Assembly (NCBI GenBank): GCA_005191425.1 | Contig: SUPR01000007.1 | Location: 27,107-59,106, forward strand | Direction: 5' to 3' | Origin: Candidatus Helarchaeota ASGARD archaeon Hel_GB_B | GTDB taxonomy: Archaea; Asgardarchaeota; Lokiarchaeia; Helarchaeales; HEL-GB-B | Length of the DNA stretch: 32,000 nucleotides | Part shown: positions 11,015 to 19,531 of the stretch, piece by piece | How positions within the stretch are numbered: position 1 is the first letter of the stretch | Layout of the letters: every line of letters starts with the position of its first letter | Position numbers and translations under genes: made by a program | Notes under the pieces: model-generated | The model's database searches: none | The model's input: the letters and a program-made list of their open reading frames with translations, nothing else | What the model was told of the DNA's origin: nothing

Positions 11015-11335
11015 TTAATCCTCACTAAATAATTTTTCAATATCGAACCTTTTTTTTATTTCAGAATCTAAATAGTTATGAAGTCTTTTAATAGCAGTTT
11101 TATCTAATGAAAAATCCTCAAAATCTTTTTTAGGGAAAAATTTTTTGAGTATTTTTTTCTTTTTTTTAATCTCTACTTCTTCATTCATTTTGTTTTCATT
11201 AATTTCTTCATCTATTAATTTGTTAAGGTCTATCCCCGCAGCTTCTTTAATAAAATTTAAAATTGTATTAAATTGTTCGCTCAAATCTTGAATTGGTTTG
11301 ATACTTTCTATTTTAGTTCTATTTTTTGAGATCAA
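11015..11335 (-). CDS. Hypothetical protein, possibly the C-terminal part of an interrupted gene (same frame as 11393-12022)
   Basis: 106-aa charged helical ORF with a TTG start and no clear RBS. The frame stays open upstream to the TAA at 11393-11395. Confidence 0.45.
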   Translation of the reverse strand: MISKNRTKIESIKPIQDLSEQFNTILNFIKEAAGIDLNKLIDEEINENKMNEEVEIKKKKKILKKFFPKKDFEDFSLDKTAIKRLHNYLDSEIKKRFDIEKLFSED

Positions 11336-11392: not shown

Positions 11393-12022
11393 TTAATTAA
11401 AATTTGCTATTTCTGTTAAAATATTATCGCTGTCATTTAACTCTTTTTCAAGGTTTAAAGTTAATAAATTATCAATTAATCTAACAAGATATTTTATAGT
11501 AAATTCCAAATAATAAAACAATTTATTCAATAAATTATTTGATAAATCTTCTTGAAATTCATTATTTTCTTTAATATCTTCTAATATATTTAAAGTAGTT
11601 AAAAGATAATCTTCTTGATCTTTTAAAAATTTAGTGAGATCTTTGACTGTTAGATCGGTCTTTCTAATGAATTTAGTGTTTAATTTTTCAATTTTATGGA
11701 ATGAAAATCCCGGAATCTTTTTCATTTCATCTAAAATAAATTTAATAGTGTCAGAAATTAAAGAATTTAATTCATTTTTTGTTATATCTGGTGGTATTGA
11801 AAGTTTCGGAATTATACAATTATTAATTAATAATTCAAAATATTTCTCATATTTAAAATCATGTTGTCCTTTAAATAATGCCTCGGAAAATTCTTTTATT
11901 TCTTTATCTTGTTCAAATAATAGTTTGTTTTTAGTATTACTTGGTTTATTTTCTCTAATATATGTTAAAACTGGTAAAGATGATATTAACACAACTTCAT
12001 TTATGTTAATCATTTCACTCAT
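11393..12022 (-). CDS. Hypothetical all-helical protein
   Basis: 209-aa ORF with no recognised motif. Confidence 0.6.
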   Translation of the reverse strand: MSEMININEVVLISSLPVLTYIRENKPSNTKNKLLFEQDKEIKEFSEALFKGQHDFKYEKYFELLINNCIIPKLSIPPDITKNELNSLISDTIKFILDEMKKIPGFSFHKIEKLNTKFIRKTDLTVKDLTKFLKDQEDYLLTTLNILEDIKENNEFQEDLSNNLLNKLFYYLEFTIKYLVRLIDNLLTLNLEKELNDSDNILTEIANFN

Positions 12023-12240: not shown

Positions 12241-13692
12241 TTAAGATTGCATTTCTTGCCATAATTCTTCTATTTTTTCTAAATTCCAGCGTTTTTCTAA
12301 AAGAAATGGAATTCCACCACAATCTCGAGGTCCAACTATTACTACCTTATTTGCTGAATCCTCGAGTTCACCTTGAAGCCTTGCAGCTAATCCAGGGATT
12401 ATTATTCCGTGGTGTTTAACTTTTTCATTGACTTTATATTTTTCAATATGTTCTTTTATGGCATCGACATTAAGATCTCCACCGGCGACCGCACATTCTA
12501 CACCTATTCCTTCGGTGTCTATTACTAATAGCCATGAAGGAATTCTGCTCTCTTCCAGATCTCCTTTAACTACAAAATAGGTCATTGTATAATTAGTCGT
12601 CAAAAAGAGCGGAGATTCTGGAGTGGGATTGTTTATTTCATATAATCCTGGTTCTACAGCTGGATTGATTCTTGGGTCTGCGTATACATTTTGTCTAACG
12701 ACTCCTATAGCGAGCATAAACCAATTTTCTGCTGTATGAAATATTAAAAGATTAGTAGCATGGCTTATTAAAATCGTTCCTAGTTTAGCTTCTTCATAAG
12801 ATAAAGTAACTCTTTCACCTAAAGATAGGTTCTTTATATCTTGGTCCATCCAAACTGCTGCAGGTATTCCAATAGTTGGATATCCAATTGATTTGTCTCC
12901 TTTTTCAATCGCCGATTTTTTAAGGATAATATGTCGGCTATATGTTTCACCTATATGTCCTTCACCTGGAATGGTACCTGGGTCGAGTACAATTTTATTT
13001 ATACCTGCATTTTCAAGTGAAACGCATAAACTTTTGAGTTCGTCAAGGTCTGTAGAATATACAGTAATAGGCACATCATATTCTAGGGCTAATTTTGCCA
13101 TTTCTTTCCAATTTTCTTTGGTGGCTGTATACATCAATGGATTTTTGTTTTTAGTTACCTTTAACCCTGCTTCCATAATTTTTGGGTCTAAGGTACACAA
13201 GATAATTGGAAGATCAGTAATAGAAAGTACTTTCTTAACAGCTTGAGCAAATGTATCCGGATTTCCCGATAAAGACCTGACAGCAATCCCTTGCAAATTA
13301 ATTCTATCACCTAATCTTATCCAGTCATAATTCTTAACAAATTCAGTTCTTTGGATCAGGTCGTCTAAATCTTCATCATTGACATCAACAAAAATAGCGG
13401 TCGGACTATAATAAGTAAGTTCATGTCTGTATAAGACTTCTTCTCCGCCTATAGATATCTGTTTTTCACCGGTACCAATTTTAATACTAATTATTGGAGG
13501 AGTTACAAGTTCTTTTAATTTTTTTAATTTTTTAGCGTATTTTTTTTCGCTAAATAATGGTTTACATTCTTTAAGTTCTATTAAATGGTCTAATAATTTT
13601 ACTGCAAAGGACATACATGTTTGTTCTCCACATTGTCCGCAATTGGTCCCGGGTAATAATGGGATAACATTTAAAGGGCTTAATTTTGGCAT
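12241..13692 (-). CDS. cdhE: Acetyl-CoA decarbonylase/synthase gamma subunit (corrinoid Fe-S protein, large subunit)
   Basis: N-terminal [4Fe-4S] motif LPGTNCGQCGEQTCMSFA...C, IGGEEVLYRHE, LTTNYTMTYF, and IIPGLAARLQGELED...VGPRD. GGAGG RBS. Confidence 0.95.
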   Translation of the reverse strand: MPKLSPLNVIPLLPGTNCGQCGEQTCMSFAVKLLDHLIELKECKPLFSEKKYAKKLKKLKELVTPPIISIKIGTGEKQISIGGEEVLYRHELTYYSPTAIFVDVNDEDLDDLIQRTEFVKNYDWIRLGDRINLQGIAVRSLSGNPDTFAQAVKKVLSITDLPIILCTLDPKIMEAGLKVTKNKNPLMYTATKENWKEMAKLALEYDVPITVYSTDLDELKSLCVSLENAGINKIVLDPGTIPGEGHIGETYSRHIILKKSAIEKGDKSIGYPTIGIPAAVWMDQDIKNLSLGERVTLSYEEAKLGTILISHATNLLIFHTAENWFMLAIGVVRQNVYADPRINPAVEPGLYEINNPTPESPLFLTTNYTMTYFVVKGDLEESRIPSWLLVIDTEGIGVECAVAGGDLNVDAIKEHIEKYKVNEKVKHHGIIIPGLAARLQGELEDSANKVVIVGPRDCGGIPFLLEKRWNLEKIEELWQEMQS

Positions 13693-13708: not shown

Positions 13709-14944
13709 TTATTTCATAGTAATCCATTTTAGTCCATCTACTGGTTTTGATGGCTTAGGTGCGGATAATTTTTCAATAATATCTTTAAAACCTGCAACAG
13801 ATCCTGGGTGGAGCATCATTGCCAAATCAAGGCCTACAATTGAAAGAATGAAGGCTGTCAAAATTTCCCATAATGGGCCTCTGAATGCTCGTGGACCCCA
13901 TTCTGGTCTAAGTTTATCTGCCATAAAAGCTTCTCGAGCTCCCCAAGCATTAGTAGTACCTCCACTCATTGGGAATGCAAGCGTTTCTTCTCCTTTTAAT
14001 CCGCTTAATCTCATTCTTTCATAAACTGAAAAGCTATATTCAATTCCATAACCTAAAGGTCCAACCGTTGGATCCATTACAATTAAATCTTTAGAAAGAC
14101 CCATATCTAAAATCTCTGAGTTTAATTTCTTCTGGTTATTCACGTCTAATTGAGTCCATGATAAAACTATTTGGTCATATTTTTTTGCAACAGGAACAAT
14201 TTTTTCATATGTATCTAATTCAACTGAACTCAACATAAAACGATTCCCTGCAATCATATCAGCAACACCAGTAAAAAGTTCTACATCTTTTCTATGATTA
14301 CCAGAACCCCCAATTATAATTGGAACATCAACTGCATCCATTACCTGTTCGAGGTGTTCTAATGCTTGTCTAACGCTTTGGTTTCCACCTTCTTTTTCAG
14401 GTAAAGTAGGGTCTGTCCCGATAAAATGGAGTGTAATCATATCCGCTCCAAATTCTTCAACATGTTTCTTTGCCCATAGCCCTGGGTTTGTAGAAACATC
14501 TGGATTTAGAAAATGTTCTTTGACGGGTTTGCTTAATCTTAAAATTGATGGTCTTTCTTTTGTGTGGATAGGTACATCAAAAACATCAGCAGTTACAACT
14601 GGTCTATTTGGGTTTTTTCCAAGAAAACTATAGAAGGGCGGATATTTTTCGCCACCAATGACTACATTTTTTCCACCTTTTCTTTTAAAAGTAATTACAT
14701 TAATTTCAGAGGGATAATCTTCAGTAATGGTCGCAAGCTTTGAATCTTTCCAGACAAATTCTGCGCGTTTTGCAATAGGTTGTAACATTTGAGTGGCCAT
14801 CGTGGCTGCTTGATAGCCTGCAGCCTTAGGTGGCCTAAGTACTAAACTATCAATAAAAAATTGAATGTCTTTAAATATTGCAACTCCTGTTTCATCGAAT
14901 AATTTTTCTAAATCATTCATAAATTCTTCTGGGTCTCGACTCAT
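13709..14944 (-). CDS. cdhD: Acetyl-CoA decarbonylase/synthase delta subunit (corrinoid Fe-S protein, small subunit)
   Basis: FGADMITLHF, IIGGSGN...D, MDPTVGPLGYGIEYS..YERMRL.GLKG, NAWGAREA, MMLHP. GGTGA RBS at 14951-14955. Confidence 0.95.
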   Translation of the reverse strand: MSRDPEEFMNDLEKLFDETGVAIFKDIQFFIDSLVLRPPKAAGYQAATMATQMLQPIAKRAEFVWKDSKLATITEDYPSEINVITFKRKGGKNVVIGGEKYPPFYSFLGKNPNRPVVTADVFDVPIHTKERPSILRLSKPVKEHFLNPDVSTNPGLWAKKHVEEFGADMITLHFIGTDPTLPEKEGGNQSVRQALEHLEQVMDAVDVPIIIGGSGNHRKDVELFTGVADMIAGNRFMLSSVELDTYEKIVPVAKKYDQIVLSWTQLDVNNQKKLNSEILDMGLSKDLIVMDPTVGPLGYGIEYSFSVYERMRLSGLKGEETLAFPMSGGTTNAWGAREAFMADKLRPEWGPRAFRGPLWEILTAFILSIVGLDLAMMLHPGSVAGFKDIIEKLSAPKPSKPVDGLKWITMK

Positions 14945-14960
14945 CGAAAATCACCAATTA

Positions 14961-15068
14961 TTAAATCTCTAATCCTAATTCATCTGTTTCAATCTGAATA
15001 TTCTTTAAAACTATCTCATCTATATTGTCTAGCAGTTCGTCTAATTTTGATAGAAAATTTTCTGACAT
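14961..15068 (-). CDS. Small 35-aa acidic protein within the ACDS operon, absent from the ORF track (MSENFLSKLDELLDNIDEIVLKNIQIETDELGLEI)
   Basis: ATG at 15068, GGAG RBS at 15078-15081 with 9-nt spacing, tandem TAA TAA stop. It fills the cdhC-cdhD gap, and its motif resembles the CdhC C-terminus and CdhD N-terminus. Confidence 0.75.
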   Translation of the reverse strand: MSENFLSKLDELLDNIDEIVLKNIQIETDELGLEI

Positions 15069-15083
15069 CTTAAATTTCTCCAA

Positions 15084-16580
15084 TTATTTTTTCTTCTTTT
15101 TTGCAGGTTTAATTCGCTTGATGACCATTTCATCGGCAATTATCTTTGCATTCTTAAAGGTAATTTTCCATTGTGCACCAGCTCCACCGCCTAAGGCACC
15201 TAAAGGTAATTGTAATTGTCCTACAAGTGGAATTCCGACACCAGTACCCATTTGAACTGGCATTGTTTGTTGATATGTAATTTGTTGTCCTTGTGGTACC
15301 ATCATAGCTTCTTCTTCTTCCTCCTCTTCTTCTTCCTCTTCAACCCAATCTTTTACAACTGGGTGGTCAACGCTCTTTAAAAATGCTTTTAATTCGTCTA
15401 TAGTGGGCGCATTCTTTTCCGTAGCAATCTTATCTCTGATATCTTCGGGAATATCATTTTCAACTCGTTCTTTTATATTTGAAGGTAACCAAACAATTTT
15501 ATTCCAGCCACCATCTGCGGAGAAAAGTTTAGGTGATCTTAAATATTCTATTGCAATACCTACAAAGCCTTCTACTTGTTTTCCACCACCAGTTGAGTTT
15601 GCCATTGTACTGAAACGTAGACCATTAACTGTTTCTCCTTTAAAATTACGATCAACTATCCCTATACCCGCTACTTCGGGGATATAAAATGCAATAGCCT
15701 CAAAGCAACCGCATGAAGTATGATTATAGGGACTTAAAATTGTATATAAATGTACTCTATCGATTTCACCCAGTGACTTTTTCTTTGTAATTTCATTTAC
15801 ACCTGTAAATTCTCCTTTTATTTCATCGATACATTCTCCTTTTTCAATAGCAAAATTTGGTCCTTTTGGATCAACTTTTGAAGCAGCTCTTGCATCAAAC
15901 CAGTTAATTGCACCGCATAAGGAGATTCTTTCAGGTGTTATTGTACATACATGTGTTGGTGCGAAACTCTGACATAATGTACATCCATAGAACAAATCGA
16001 CATCTTCATCTTTCATGCCCCTTGCTCTAGAATCCCTTGCTTCATAAATCTCCATAGCTTTTTCGTACCAAGTTTTAATTTCCTTTGGGTCTGTAAAGAT
16101 AGTTACTTGAATTTTTTCAATTACTTTTGAGAATTCTGATTTATACAATCTAATGAGAACTTTTCCCCAATATTCGAGAGTATCAAAGCCTTTTTTGTAT
16201 GATGATTTTGATAATCGCATCCAGATATCGTATCTTTGATTCAAATGCATTAAACCTTCGATATAATTAGTAAATTCGTGAATTCTTCTTTCTAAGACAG
16301 CTTCTAAGTCTTTTTCGACCAACCTACCAGCTACTTCTACGATAATACCGATGGGATAAGTTTTACCCTCTTCTAAGTCTTTTAAATCAGGACCTACAAT
16401 AGTAACTTTTTCATCTTCAATTTCGTTCATTTCACGAGCTAATACCAGTTCAAATTTTTCCTTAATTTTGCCTCCGCCAAGTTCTACTTGCATTTGTTTT
16501 CCTCTGACTCGTTCGCCTTCATAAATTAATCCAACATCTACAGGGATATCAGAAAACATTCCAGATTCTTCATCACTCAT
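15084..16580 (-). CDS. cdhC: Acetyl-CoA synthase, ACDS beta subunit (archaeal short form)
   Basis: FYGCTLCQSFAPTHVC, SLCGAINW, and HTSCGCFEAI A-cluster Cys ligands. A poly-Glu linker precedes the C-terminal KITFKNAKIIADEMVIK. Confidence 0.96.
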   Translation of the reverse strand: MSDEESGMFSDIPVDVGLIYEGERVRGKQMQVELGGGKIKEKFELVLAREMNEIEDEKVTIVGPDLKDLEEGKTYPIGIIVEVAGRLVEKDLEAVLERRIHEFTNYIEGLMHLNQRYDIWMRLSKSSYKKGFDTLEYWGKVLIRLYKSEFSKVIEKIQVTIFTDPKEIKTWYEKAMEIYEARDSRARGMKDEDVDLFYGCTLCQSFAPTHVCTITPERISLCGAINWFDARAASKVDPKGPNFAIEKGECIDEIKGEFTGVNEITKKKSLGEIDRVHLYTILSPYNHTSCGCFEAIAFYIPEVAGIGIVDRNFKGETVNGLRFSTMANSTGGGKQVEGFVGIAIEYLRSPKLFSADGGWNKIVWLPSNIKERVENDIPEDIRDKIATEKNAPTIDELKAFLKSVDHPVVKDWVEEEEEEEEEEEAMMVPQGQQITYQQTMPVQMGTGVGIPLVGQLQLPLGALGGGAGAQWKITFKNAKIIADEMVIKRIKPAKKKKK

Positions 16581-16621: not shown

Positions 16622-17176
16622 TCACTCCATTATAAGTTTGACTATATCATTAATTGCTTTTTTCCATTCCTCGACCTTAAAGTTTGCAAGACAAAATGAC
16701 GCATTTGGTTGGAAGTATCTATCTAAAGAAATTCCTTTTGACCATTTATAAGAAAAATGCTTCATTGCACTGAACATCTGGGATTGTAAATAATAGACCA
16801 TTGCAGCAATTATAACCCAGTCATAATGTCCTTTGCCGTCAAATCCCTTCCAATTTTCATCACAGACTCTATGGATAACATTAGAAACTGACATTATTGC
16901 AACTGGTTTTATATCTTTTTCAACAAATGTCTTTGCAACTTCCGTTGTAGCGACTACTGGAATTTTTTTCTTTTTAACTAATTCGACTAGTAGGTCTAAA
17001 TATGTTTTACCATTTCCAATATCAACATCATATTCATAACCACCCACTATTAAAAGAGGCCTTTTTGCTTTCTTAATTATTTTACCTATTATTTCTGGTT
17101 TATAAACTGGTGTTCCAGCAATTGGGCCATTAATATGGGTGGGTCTCCAAGGTTTTATTTTAAAAATCTTGATCAT
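16622..17176 (-). CDS. cdhB: ACDS/CODH epsilon subunit
   Basis: IKKAKRPLLIVG, WKGFDGKGHYD, and SLDRYFQPNASF motifs. Lies between cdhA and cdhC. Confidence 0.92.
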   Translation of the reverse strand: MIKIFKIKPWRPTHINGPIAGTPVYKPEIIGKIIKKAKRPLLIVGGYEYDVDIGNGKTYLDLLVELVKKKKIPVVATTEVAKTFVEKDIKPVAIMSVSNVIHRVCDENWKGFDGKGHYDWVIIAAMVYYLQSQMFSAMKHFSYKWSKGISLDRYFQPNASFCLANFKVEEWKKAINDIVKLIME

Positions 17177-17185
17177 CTCCTTTTA

Positions 17186-19531
17186 TTATTTTTTCTTTTT
17201 TATTAATCTAGGCAAGTTTGTTGGGTCTGGAATAGATTTTTCCTTCCAACCTTTTTCTTTCAACATTTTCATTATTTCTGATTTAAAGGTCAGTGGGATA
17301 TCTGCTTCTACTCTGATAAACTTCCATACATCGTCTGGCATAGTACCATATATCTTTTTATGTAAGTCTATCCAGTGTGTCAATTTTACTGCTCTACCTT
17401 TAAAGTTGTCAGCAGGTCTTATACATAATTTTGCAGCCATTACAGTTGCCTCATCAATTGTTTCACATGACATTATCAAATTTTCAGGTGCAGGTCCAAT
17501 TTTGAATTTTTCTCCAGTTCTTGCATCATGAATAAACCAAGCATCTTCATTATAGGTTTTACCAAGGTATTGTCTTCTATATTTTGATCCATGCGGGCCA
17601 ACAATTGCTGGGACTCCAAAAGCATTGAACCCAGTTGCAATTGAGGCAGCCTTCTGAGACATAGCGCCCCATGATATACCAACAGCACCAATCCTATTGA
17701 GTATATAATCTGCAATTTCTTCGAAATTTCCTCTTAGATTTCTTCTTGCAAATATACTCGCTACTTTAATACAAGCTCCTGAGATATGCGCATTTGACAC
17801 ACAGGAACCTATATTACAAAGGCCTCCTGCATCGAAAACACCTGGATATTTTTCATATAAGGTGAGTCCATCTTCAGTTCTGTATCGACCAAGATCCATA
17901 GCATGACACCCTGTCGCAACTACAATATATCTTCTTTTTAAGAACTCTTCAGCTAGTCTTGCCACTTCCATATTACCATTTGGTAAATTTCCACACCCAA
18001 TAAGAGCTATAATACCTGGTATTTCGCCAAGGACTAATGGAGCTCCAACAGCTCTAATTTCAGTATCCTTTACAGGGCCTCTTCCAGCTCTAATCTTCCA
18101 TTTTTCATTTCTAACATTTTTCTGCCACGATTGAATTATCATTCCAGTAACTGGGATTCCATTTGGACATGCGTCTTCGCAACGGCCACAAGCCAAACAC
18201 GATTCATATAATCCTTCAAGTTTGGTAAAATCACCTGATTGAGCAGCAATTACTGCTTCTGTTGTATAAAGGTTATTTGGACATGCTCTTTGACAATTAA
18301 AGCAACCTGAACATTTCTTTGCAATTTCGATCATTTCTTTATCAGTTGGAAGATTTCTTTGTTTCTTTCTTATTGGGAACATTTTTTCAACTGTTTTAAC
18401 AGCAACTCTTGAAGCTTTTTCAGTATCGAAAATTAAGACAGCATCTCTTTTTCCGGCTACAAGTTCTTCTACTAATTTATCTTCATCTTCATGAGTACTA
18501 TCTGGAAGTCCATGACATGCTTTTTCATTCCATGCAATTACTCTTGCATTAATTGCTTTGGCTTCTTCAATAATATCTGTTCTAATACATTGTTCATCAA
18601 CCATAATAACATCTGGAAGTCCTGACCTTACAATTCTTAATTGATAAGTAATTGGTCCAATAATTTTGGCACCAAAATCATATCTAGTACTATCAAGTGC
18701 AGTGCAGCAGATTCCACCAAGTTCAATTGTTCCATACTTGCCTGTTTCCTTTAAATAATCGACAATTTCTATTGCTCCTGCAACATTATGTCCTATTAAT
18801 AATAAGAAAGGCTTATCTTTATCGATTACTCCTAGTCCTAGATCTACTAATGGTGCGTCTTCATCTCCCTTAGGGAAATTATAGGCAACTATTTGAACTA
18901 AATCTGCGACTTCCATTCCCACGTGGTCGTAAACTGATACGAGCAAAGCTTTTGCTTCATAATCTATTGCAGCGCTCTCTTGTCCAGTGTGAGTACTTGC
19001 AAGTGTGTGCATAATTTCAGTTTCAGTTTGATTTAACGCTACTTCTAAATCTTTTATTATTCTTGGTTTAATTCCAATAACGGTTCTGACAACAGGAGCT
19101 TCTAATTCAATTTCAGTTCCCATATCTATAGGAACATTTCGACCAAATTTTTCAATCAAATGATGTAATAAATGTCTTGAATGACCACAATGACAGCTAG
19201 CCCCTATACAGCAAGCTATAGTAACAAATCTTGCTTGTTGAGTAGGAAGAGTTAAGCCACAAGCACCGTGTTTTTCACGGCTAAGATCACATTTTCCAAA
19301 AGTACATAAGCAACAATAATCGCAAACTGGTGCATAGAATGGAGGATATCTTCTTAAAAGAATGTGAAACCAATTTCTCAAATCGACCAGTTCTGGCATT
19401 GGATGCGGCCCTTGAGGTTCTTCAGTCCATTCTTCTACTGGAAGTTCTCGTATATTAATTTGCAGACCTTTTACTTTTATATTTGGTGTAGATAGTGAAT
19501 CAAATTTAAAAGTTGCACTTTCTTTAGCCAA
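17186..19531 (-). CDS. cdhA: Ni-CO dehydrogenase, ACDS alpha subunit
   Basis: CDYCCLCTFGKC, CCIGASCH, GHN, GGICCT and DEQC, two extra ferredoxin motifs (CSGCFNCQRACP, CLACGRCEDACP), GCGN, TGC, GSCVSN, and SQKA. TTG start. Confidence 0.97.
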   Translation of the reverse strand: MAKESATFKFDSLSTPNIKVKGLQINIRELPVEEWTEEPQGPHPMPELVDLRNWFHILLRRYPPFYAPVCDYCCLCTFGKCDLSREKHGACGLTLPTQQARFVTIACCIGASCHCGHSRHLLHHLIEKFGRNVPIDMGTEIELEAPVVRTVIGIKPRIIKDLEVALNQTETEIMHTLASTHTGQESAAIDYEAKALLVSVYDHVGMEVADLVQIVAYNFPKGDEDAPLVDLGLGVIDKDKPFLLLIGHNVAGAIEIVDYLKETGKYGTIELGGICCTALDSTRYDFGAKIIGPITYQLRIVRSGLPDVIMVDEQCIRTDIIEEAKAINARVIAWNEKACHGLPDSTHEDEDKLVEELVAGKRDAVLIFDTEKASRVAVKTVEKMFPIRKKQRNLPTDKEMIEIAKKCSGCFNCQRACPNNLYTTEAVIAAQSGDFTKLEGLYESCLACGRCEDACPNGIPVTGMIIQSWQKNVRNEKWKIRAGRGPVKDTEIRAVGAPLVLGEIPGIIALIGCGNLPNGNMEVARLAEEFLKRRYIVVATGCHAMDLGRYRTEDGLTLYEKYPGVFDAGGLCNIGSCVSNAHISGACIKVASIFARRNLRGNFEEIADYILNRIGAVGISWGAMSQKAASIATGFNAFGVPAIVGPHGSKYRRQYLGKTYNEDAWFIHDARTGEKFKIGPAPENLIMSCETIDEATVMAAKLCIRPADNFKGRAVKLTHWIDLHKKIYGTMPDDVWKFIRVEADIPLTFKSEIMKMLKEKGWKEKSIPDPTNLPRLIKKKK

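Follow-up and report, generated by a model that had tools for sequence, protein, structure and literature searches.

The closest described counterpart of the sequence analysed here is the N-terminal region of Methanosarcina CdhD. In the ~2 MDa ACDS of M. acetivorans, a coiled coil made up of CdhD residues 45-68 associates into hexa- to octamers and occupies the centre of the complex (Zimmer et al., bioRxiv July 2026, PMC13370988). The construct used in that study consisted of CdhD residues 43-88, and the module described below lies just outside it. The same authors proposed that the conserved CdhA N-terminal (residues 1-43) and CdhC C-terminal (residues 401-470) regions bind the CdhD N-region, and reported one crosslink between the CdhA N-terminal and CdhC C-terminal tails; a hairpin, a strand, a motif or a small protein is not mentioned in their text (PMC13370988). 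In a 2024 cryo-EM study of the M. thermophila CODH/ACS, the ~75-residue CdhC tail was not resolved and its function was called unknown (PMC11474084).

We analysed a 32,000-nucleotide stretch of DNA (the window) containing a Helarchaeales (Asgard) cdh operon in which cdhC and cdhD are separated by a 35-codon open reading frame, hereafter sORF. In Methanosarcina cdh operons, a cooC-like ORF is found between these two genes and encodes a P-loop nickel-insertion ATPase of ~250 aa. Although this ORF shares the operon position of sORF, the two are unrelated; the sORF product is only 35 aa long and has no Pfam match. MicroProteins provide a further comparison. These proteins, which include plant LITTLE ZIPPER and animal Id proteins, mostly titrate eukaryotic transcription factors. 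Like them, sORF is a small single module that appears to have arisen by duplication and truncation of a module of a larger protein, and by analogy it would be well placed to engage the partners of its parent. Unlike the known microProteins, it derives from a subunit of a very large archaeal metabolic complex, and its gene is co-operonic with that of the parent.

The operon is encoded entirely on the minus strand in the order cdhA-B-C-sORF-D-E, and the same order was found in relatives. Pfam matches identified the genes for the CODH alpha subunit CdhA (17186..19531, 781 aa, TTG start), the CODH epsilon subunit CdhB (16622..17176), the ACS beta subunit CdhC (15084..16580, 498 aa), the CoFeSP small subunit CdhD (13709..14944, 411 aa) and the CoFeSP large subunit CdhE (12241..13692). 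sORF occupies 14961..15068 of the same strand (coding part 14964-15068), extending from an ATG at 15068-15066 to a TAA at 14963-14961 that is followed by a second in-frame TAA at 14960-14958. It is encoded within the cdh operon, as is expected of an ACDS subunit. The initial annotation had described a 35-aa ORF with its own GGAG in the cdhC-cdhD gap and placed cdhD in another frame behind a separate GGTGA, and reading the sequence confirmed both points: the two Shine-Dalgarno-like sites lie 9 nt before the sORF ATG (GGAG, 15078..15081, minus strand) and 6 nt before the cdhD ATG (GGTGA, 14951..14955, minus strand), and the cdhD and sORF frames differ (offset 124 nt). The three similar stretches that it had quoted from sORF, the CdhD N-terminus and the CdhC C-terminus are present as well, as are the flexible linkers, which are poly-Glu and then Gln/Gly-rich in CdhC and Ala/Thr/Gln-rich in CdhD. 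A search of positions 14700-15300 against Rfam gave no match. Two ORFs of 209 and 106 aa, neither with a Pfam match, are located just 3' of cdhE on the same strand (11393-12022 and 11015-11335, both minus).

The TAA stop of cdhC is followed immediately by the open frame of sORF, which begins with a TTG at 15083 in the same frame as cdhC (15081-15086, minus strand). Read-through of this TAA would add the module onto CdhC in this window. In G001, a second genome of the same genus, sORF is instead in frame with cdhD, with one TAA between them. As neither frame relation is conserved, both are probably incidental.

With a GC content of 29.6% in the window, the chance of a 35-codon open run is ~0.05. 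sORF has been kept open in several genomes in which synonymous sites are saturated, and is therefore more than a chance open run. Conservation in relatives, one of the checks suggested by the initial annotation, was found when 60 related genomes were searched. The cdhC-cdhD gap holds an intact orthologue in four of the five other Helarchaeales genomes that have the operon, namely G001 (35 aa, 54% amino-acid identity), G003 (44 aa), G004 (40 aa) and G005 (65 aa); the gap of the fifth, G006, contains no ORF in an otherwise intact operon. The ORF is intact across three Helarchaeales families. Comparison of sORF with its G001 orthologue gave a pN of 0.28 and a pS of 0.955, such that synonymous sites are saturated and replacements restrained. 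For the flanking genes, dN/dS relative to G001 was 0.05 (cdhC) and 0.13 (cdhD), and sORF diverges faster than these genes (54% amino-acid identity vs 75-80%).

We also searched public protein collections. A profile of the ORFs recovered 33 small homologues of 35-66 aa among 5.8 billion public proteins, all of them unnamed or called "hypothetical protein". An exhaustive search of 1.84 billion cluster representatives, in which matches of all lengths were considered, yielded 15 small proteins. The long matches from the latter search (P0040 and P0045) are unrelated repeat proteins and were rejected as spurious. Altogether, ~45 small family members (35-66 aa) are present in public data, all "hypothetical", and a search of the literature turned up no paper in which CdhD and small-protein terms occur together.

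In every context checked, the small gene lies directly upstream of cdhD. In G003 its stop codon overlaps the cdhD start as ATGA, and in Bathyarchaeia loci L138 and L139 the two genes overlap by 14 nt. Across 80 loci and 161 genomes we found no sORF that was fused to cdhD, frameshifted or interrupted, so that an in-frame fusion representing a decayed N-terminal duplication, one of the cases that the initial annotation had named as fatal to its proposal, was seen in no relative. A separate search for longer fused forms produced no scoring candidate, which by the tool's own statement is weak evidence.

The initial annotation had described a sequence pattern common to sORF and the CdhD N-terminus. 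This likeness proved to be homology rather than pattern alone. A profile of the CdhD N-terminal module, built without any sequence from this genome (G000), matched sORF with 48.5 bits and an E value of 1.5e-12, and sORF was the top match among the 40,658 six-frame ORFs of the genome. The attached paralogue of sORF is the module at CdhD residues 6-39 (14828..14929, minus strand). The ORFs can be aligned with the CdhD N-termini of relatives over 34 columns without a gap, and sORF profiles match CdhD N-termini across the class survey. The module consists of a short helix-forming stretch followed by hydrophobic residues alternating with acidic ones, and it stands at the start of each of the 74 CdhD sequences taken from Asgard and Bathyarchaeia loci. 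No match of sORF to the Pfam CdhD model (PF03599) was obtained; this model begins only at residue 90 of the CdhD of this genome.

Methanosarcina CdhD residues 1-52 align to the module profile in register (hhalign P 1.9e-5, probability 78%). The module corresponds to Methanosarcina CdhD residues ~7-36, and is followed there by a Gly-rich linker and a segment starting with D-P-M-L. sORF is homologous to the first ~35 residues of CdhD, a stretch that in this alignment comes directly before the coiled coil at residues 45-68. Unlike CdhD, however, sORF is free-standing and lacks the TIM barrel, and in this window it ends right after the module, with neither a covalent Gly linker nor a hub helix. 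Family members of 52-66 aa extend further, reproducing the Gly linker as well as the opening turns of the segment that matches the Methanosarcina hub helix in the alignment. On sequence grounds, we conclude that sORF stems from a tandem duplication of the cdhD 5' end that was kept as a separate, constrained ORF. Taking its conservation and its ancestry together, we regard it as very probable that sORF is a real, conserved gene that is paralogous to the CdhD module.

Free copies of the module are uncommon. In the 80 cdhC-centred Asgard and Bathyarchaeia loci, cdhD normally abuts or overlaps cdhC, leaving no room for an ORF, and free modules are confined to the Helarchaeota loci and one Bathyarchaeia locus. 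The class survey of 161 genomes identified free modules in G000, G001, G003, G004, G005, G038 and G062, the last two being both genomes of one Lokiarchaeia genus. Most archaea having ACDS do without a free copy. In the Lokiarchaeia genus (L037 and L125 in G038 and G062; L140), the sORF-cdhD pair is located beside a gene for an AMP-dependent ligase, and within the loci examined neither cdhC nor cdhE was found near the pair. The small proteins from Lokiarchaeia and Bathyarchaeia are nearer to their own CdhD N-termini than to the Helarchaeales small proteins, and have lineage-specific residues in common with those N-termini. This resemblance to the CdhD N-termini of their own lineage points to separate duplications, and the free copies likely arose separately in Helarchaeales, in one Lokiarchaeia genus and in one Bathyarchaeia lineage, as judged from 34 alignment columns.

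The predicted sORF product has a mass of 4.0 kDa and is strongly acidic, with a net charge of -8 and a pI of 4.05. AlphaFold2 modelling with a 33-row family alignment gave a mean pLDDT of 78.7 and predicted a helix at residues 2-15. Residues 16-35 had pLDDT values of 70-84, and DSSP assigned no strands there. Hydrophobic residues alternate in the segment after the helix. AlphaFold2 modelling of the CdhC tail gave a pLDDT of 81-85 over its motif and no DSSP assignment, which speaks neither for nor against strands there. As no strands were assigned in either run, the presumed beta character that the initial annotation ascribed to these elements is deduced from residue alternation. Prediction of a complex between the CdhA N-terminal 50 aa, the CdhC C-terminal 48 aa, the CdhD N-terminal 60 aa and sORF, each supplied with its alignment, returned a score of 0.29, below the mark of 0.32, a result that counts neither in favour of binding nor against it.

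The initial annotation had extended the common pattern to the C-terminus of CdhC. The motif in question (CdhC residues 471-489, W-K-I-T-F-K-N...I-K-R; 15114..15170, minus strand) is conserved in all 74 CdhC tails, is net basic and leads into a poly-Lys end. In each of these tails, hydrophobic residues alternate around a K-[N/D/G] position, as they do in the module. The ~75-residue CdhC extension is a conserved terminal element on a flexible linker, the last ~20 residues of which alternate hydrophobics in the same register as sORF. Profile-profile comparison of the CdhD module with the CdhC tail aligned 16 columns in the register given by the initial annotation (P 0.0038), and the score was reached by 1 of 200 column shuffles. 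In pairwise comparisons of sORF with the CdhC tail of its own genome, shuffled sequences attained the observed score 4 times in 2000 in this genome, 16 times in 2000 in G001 and 0 times in 2000 in G003; for G004 and G005 the score was at chance. Moreover, when MAFFT was given a block of CdhC tails together with the sORF read-through, it stacked the sORF rows onto the CdhC tail unprompted. The CdhC-tail HMM nevertheless ranked sORF 139th of the 40,658 ORFs with an E value of 88, which is not significant. The claim that the CdhC tail bears the same element finds weak backing in the profile comparison (P ~0.004 in the proposed register) and none in the HMM search.

From the alignments, then, the likeness between sORF and the CdhC tail appears to be a real but weak pattern resemblance. 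It could reflect a remote common origin, convergence towards a single type of structure, or the complementarity of two partners. The CdhC tail differs from sORF in being net basic and in lacking the preceding helix, and given the weak statistical support for relatedness it may be an analogous element or a binding partner rather than a homologue. In G003, the C-terminal half of the small protein (L033:5366-5497) matches the CdhC tail of the same genome over 27 columns, including the Lys-rich end. The codons differ at synonymous sites, indicating that this likeness is not the product of recent gene conversion.

We compared the charges of the corresponding segments of CdhD and CdhC. Of the 69 loci compared, 68 carry a net-acidic 17-residue segment in CdhD, and all 69 carry a net-basic one in the CdhC tail. 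The two charges were anticorrelated over these loci, with a rho of -0.69 when relatedness was uncontrolled. Controlling for relatedness left 6 independent pairs, of which 3-4 followed the trend and 0 opposed it (sign test p ~0.125). As the trend is not significant on independent pairs, co-variation of charge between CdhD and CdhC is suggestive only. A conserved region is also present at the N-terminus of CdhA (residues 7-34; 19430..19513, minus strand), where it was found in all 46 CdhA N-termini compared. Its consensus is V-K-I-D-E-L-K-T-D..K-N-L-E-L-S-I-G-K, and it corresponds to the "conserved disordered" CdhA residues 1-43 of PMC13370988. Comparison of the CdhA N-tail with the CdhD and CdhC profiles gave scores that 8 of 200 shuffles reached, a likeness too weak to claim.

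In the genus to which this genome belongs, the attached module is divergent. It reached 15.7 bits with the module profile, and the free copy 48.5. The segment of the attached copy has a charge of 0 or +1 here and in G001 and of -2 to -9 in other lineages; the sORF segment has a charge of -4. Within this genus, dN/dS of the first 40 codons of cdhD was 0.42, and the free copy retains the canonical acidic sequence. On the strength of these comparisons, the role of the module may have been handed over from CdhD to the free peptide in this genus.

We propose that the product of sORF is a genuine acidic microprotein of 35 residues, paralogous to the CdhD module and with a role in ACDS assembly, and we assign this statement as a whole a probability of roughly 0.55. 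According to this proposal, the module, which directly precedes the coiled coil responsible for CdhD oligomerisation in Methanosarcina, would act in the ACDS hub as a self-contained unit for docking onto other proteins, and the free peptide would bind wherever the attached module does. Its likeliest partners would be the net-basic CdhC C-tail, the N-modules of CdhD itself, or both. By adding, replacing or competing for tether sites, the peptide would determine the way in which ACS and CODH are anchored to the CoFeSP scaffold, and in this genus it may have taken over the acidic-module role from CdhD. The initial annotation had suggested that the similar elements of sORF, CdhC and CdhD might together build an oligomerisation hub, with the peptide as a putative sixth ACDS component. 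The idea of a hub agrees with PMC13370988, although what is demonstrated there is the coiled coil at CdhD residues 45-68 and not the elements considered here. We also entertain a more elaborate model, which we think unlikely. In this model, the acidic CdhD N-module, the basic CdhC C-tail and perhaps the CdhA N-tail would serve as tethers of CODH and ACS on the CoFeSP hub, pairing with one another as amphipathic strands of complementary charge. In Helarchaeales, the acidic tether would have become a separate polypeptide, either a stoichiometric sixth subunit or an adaptor, and in this genus it would have replaced the degenerate CdhD copy.

The peptide might instead pair homotypically with the CdhD N-module or the hub and leave the CdhC tail uninvolved, for example by capping the hub, or by limiting or seeding CoFeSP oligomerisation. 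That sORF travels with cdhD even where cdhC and cdhE lie elsewhere speaks for such an arrangement, and the location of the sORF-cdhD pair away from cdhC in the Lokiarchaeia genus is easier to reconcile with a role centred on CdhD than with one centred on CdhC. The clades with products of 52-66 aa, in which the copy reaches beyond the module through the Gly linker into the first turns of the hub-helix-aligned segment, point in the same direction. Pairing of two strongly acidic modules would, however, be electrostatically unfavourable, although the CdhD module of this genus is neutral, and we consider a partnership restricted to CdhD rather unlikely.

Both remaining explanations deny the peptide a role, and conservation at the amino-acid level counts against each of them. 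If only the act of translating sORF mattered, in that it conveyed ribosomes from cdhC to cdhD, the tight spacing, the stop/start overlaps with cdhD in G003 and the Bathyarchaeia loci, and the sORF frame that directly follows the cdhC stop in this window would all be in keeping with it. Yet conservation of the amino-acid sequence contrasts with saturation at synonymous sites, the same residues are conserved family-wide over ~15 clusters at 50% identity, and most archaea join cdhC and cdhD directly with no ORF between them; we find translational coupling improbable as the sole function. Still more improbable, in our estimate, is that part of the cdhD 5' end was duplicated in tandem and left a functionless remnant that is open by chance or through recency. 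The derivation of sORF from the cdhD 5' end is clear and it has evolved faster than the flanking genes, as a remnant would, but the ORF is intact in three Helarchaeales families and recurs in two other lineages, its pN is far below its pS, and within this genus the attached copy is less well conserved than the free one.

A microprotein acting in ACDS assembly would bear on the old question of what holds the archaeal ACDS megacomplex together. The stretch just before the hub element is a discrete and widely conserved module, and its release as a gene of its own, likely on three occasions, is good circumstantial evidence that it folds or binds autonomously. A natural peptide of 35 residues offers a ready probe or competitor for the tethering contacts. 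These results also extend the Wood-Ljungdahl gene set of Asgard archaea and Bathyarchaeia by a family of small proteins that had no annotation before, a free-standing variant of an already known CdhD region.

The module was also encountered in less usual settings. P0048, a 91-aa protein with a module of the Bathyarchaeia type, carries an N-terminal extension of ~55 residues before the module, and this extension is without a Pfam match. In the Lokiarchaeia loci L038 and L039 (genomes G023 and G008, respectively), the cdhD frame opens right after a TGA, and the helix of the module is encoded upstream of the first ATG, GTG or TTG of that frame. The position of the helix before the first start codon suggests that cdhD uses a non-canonical start codon at these loci or that the gene boundary has been set incorrectly.
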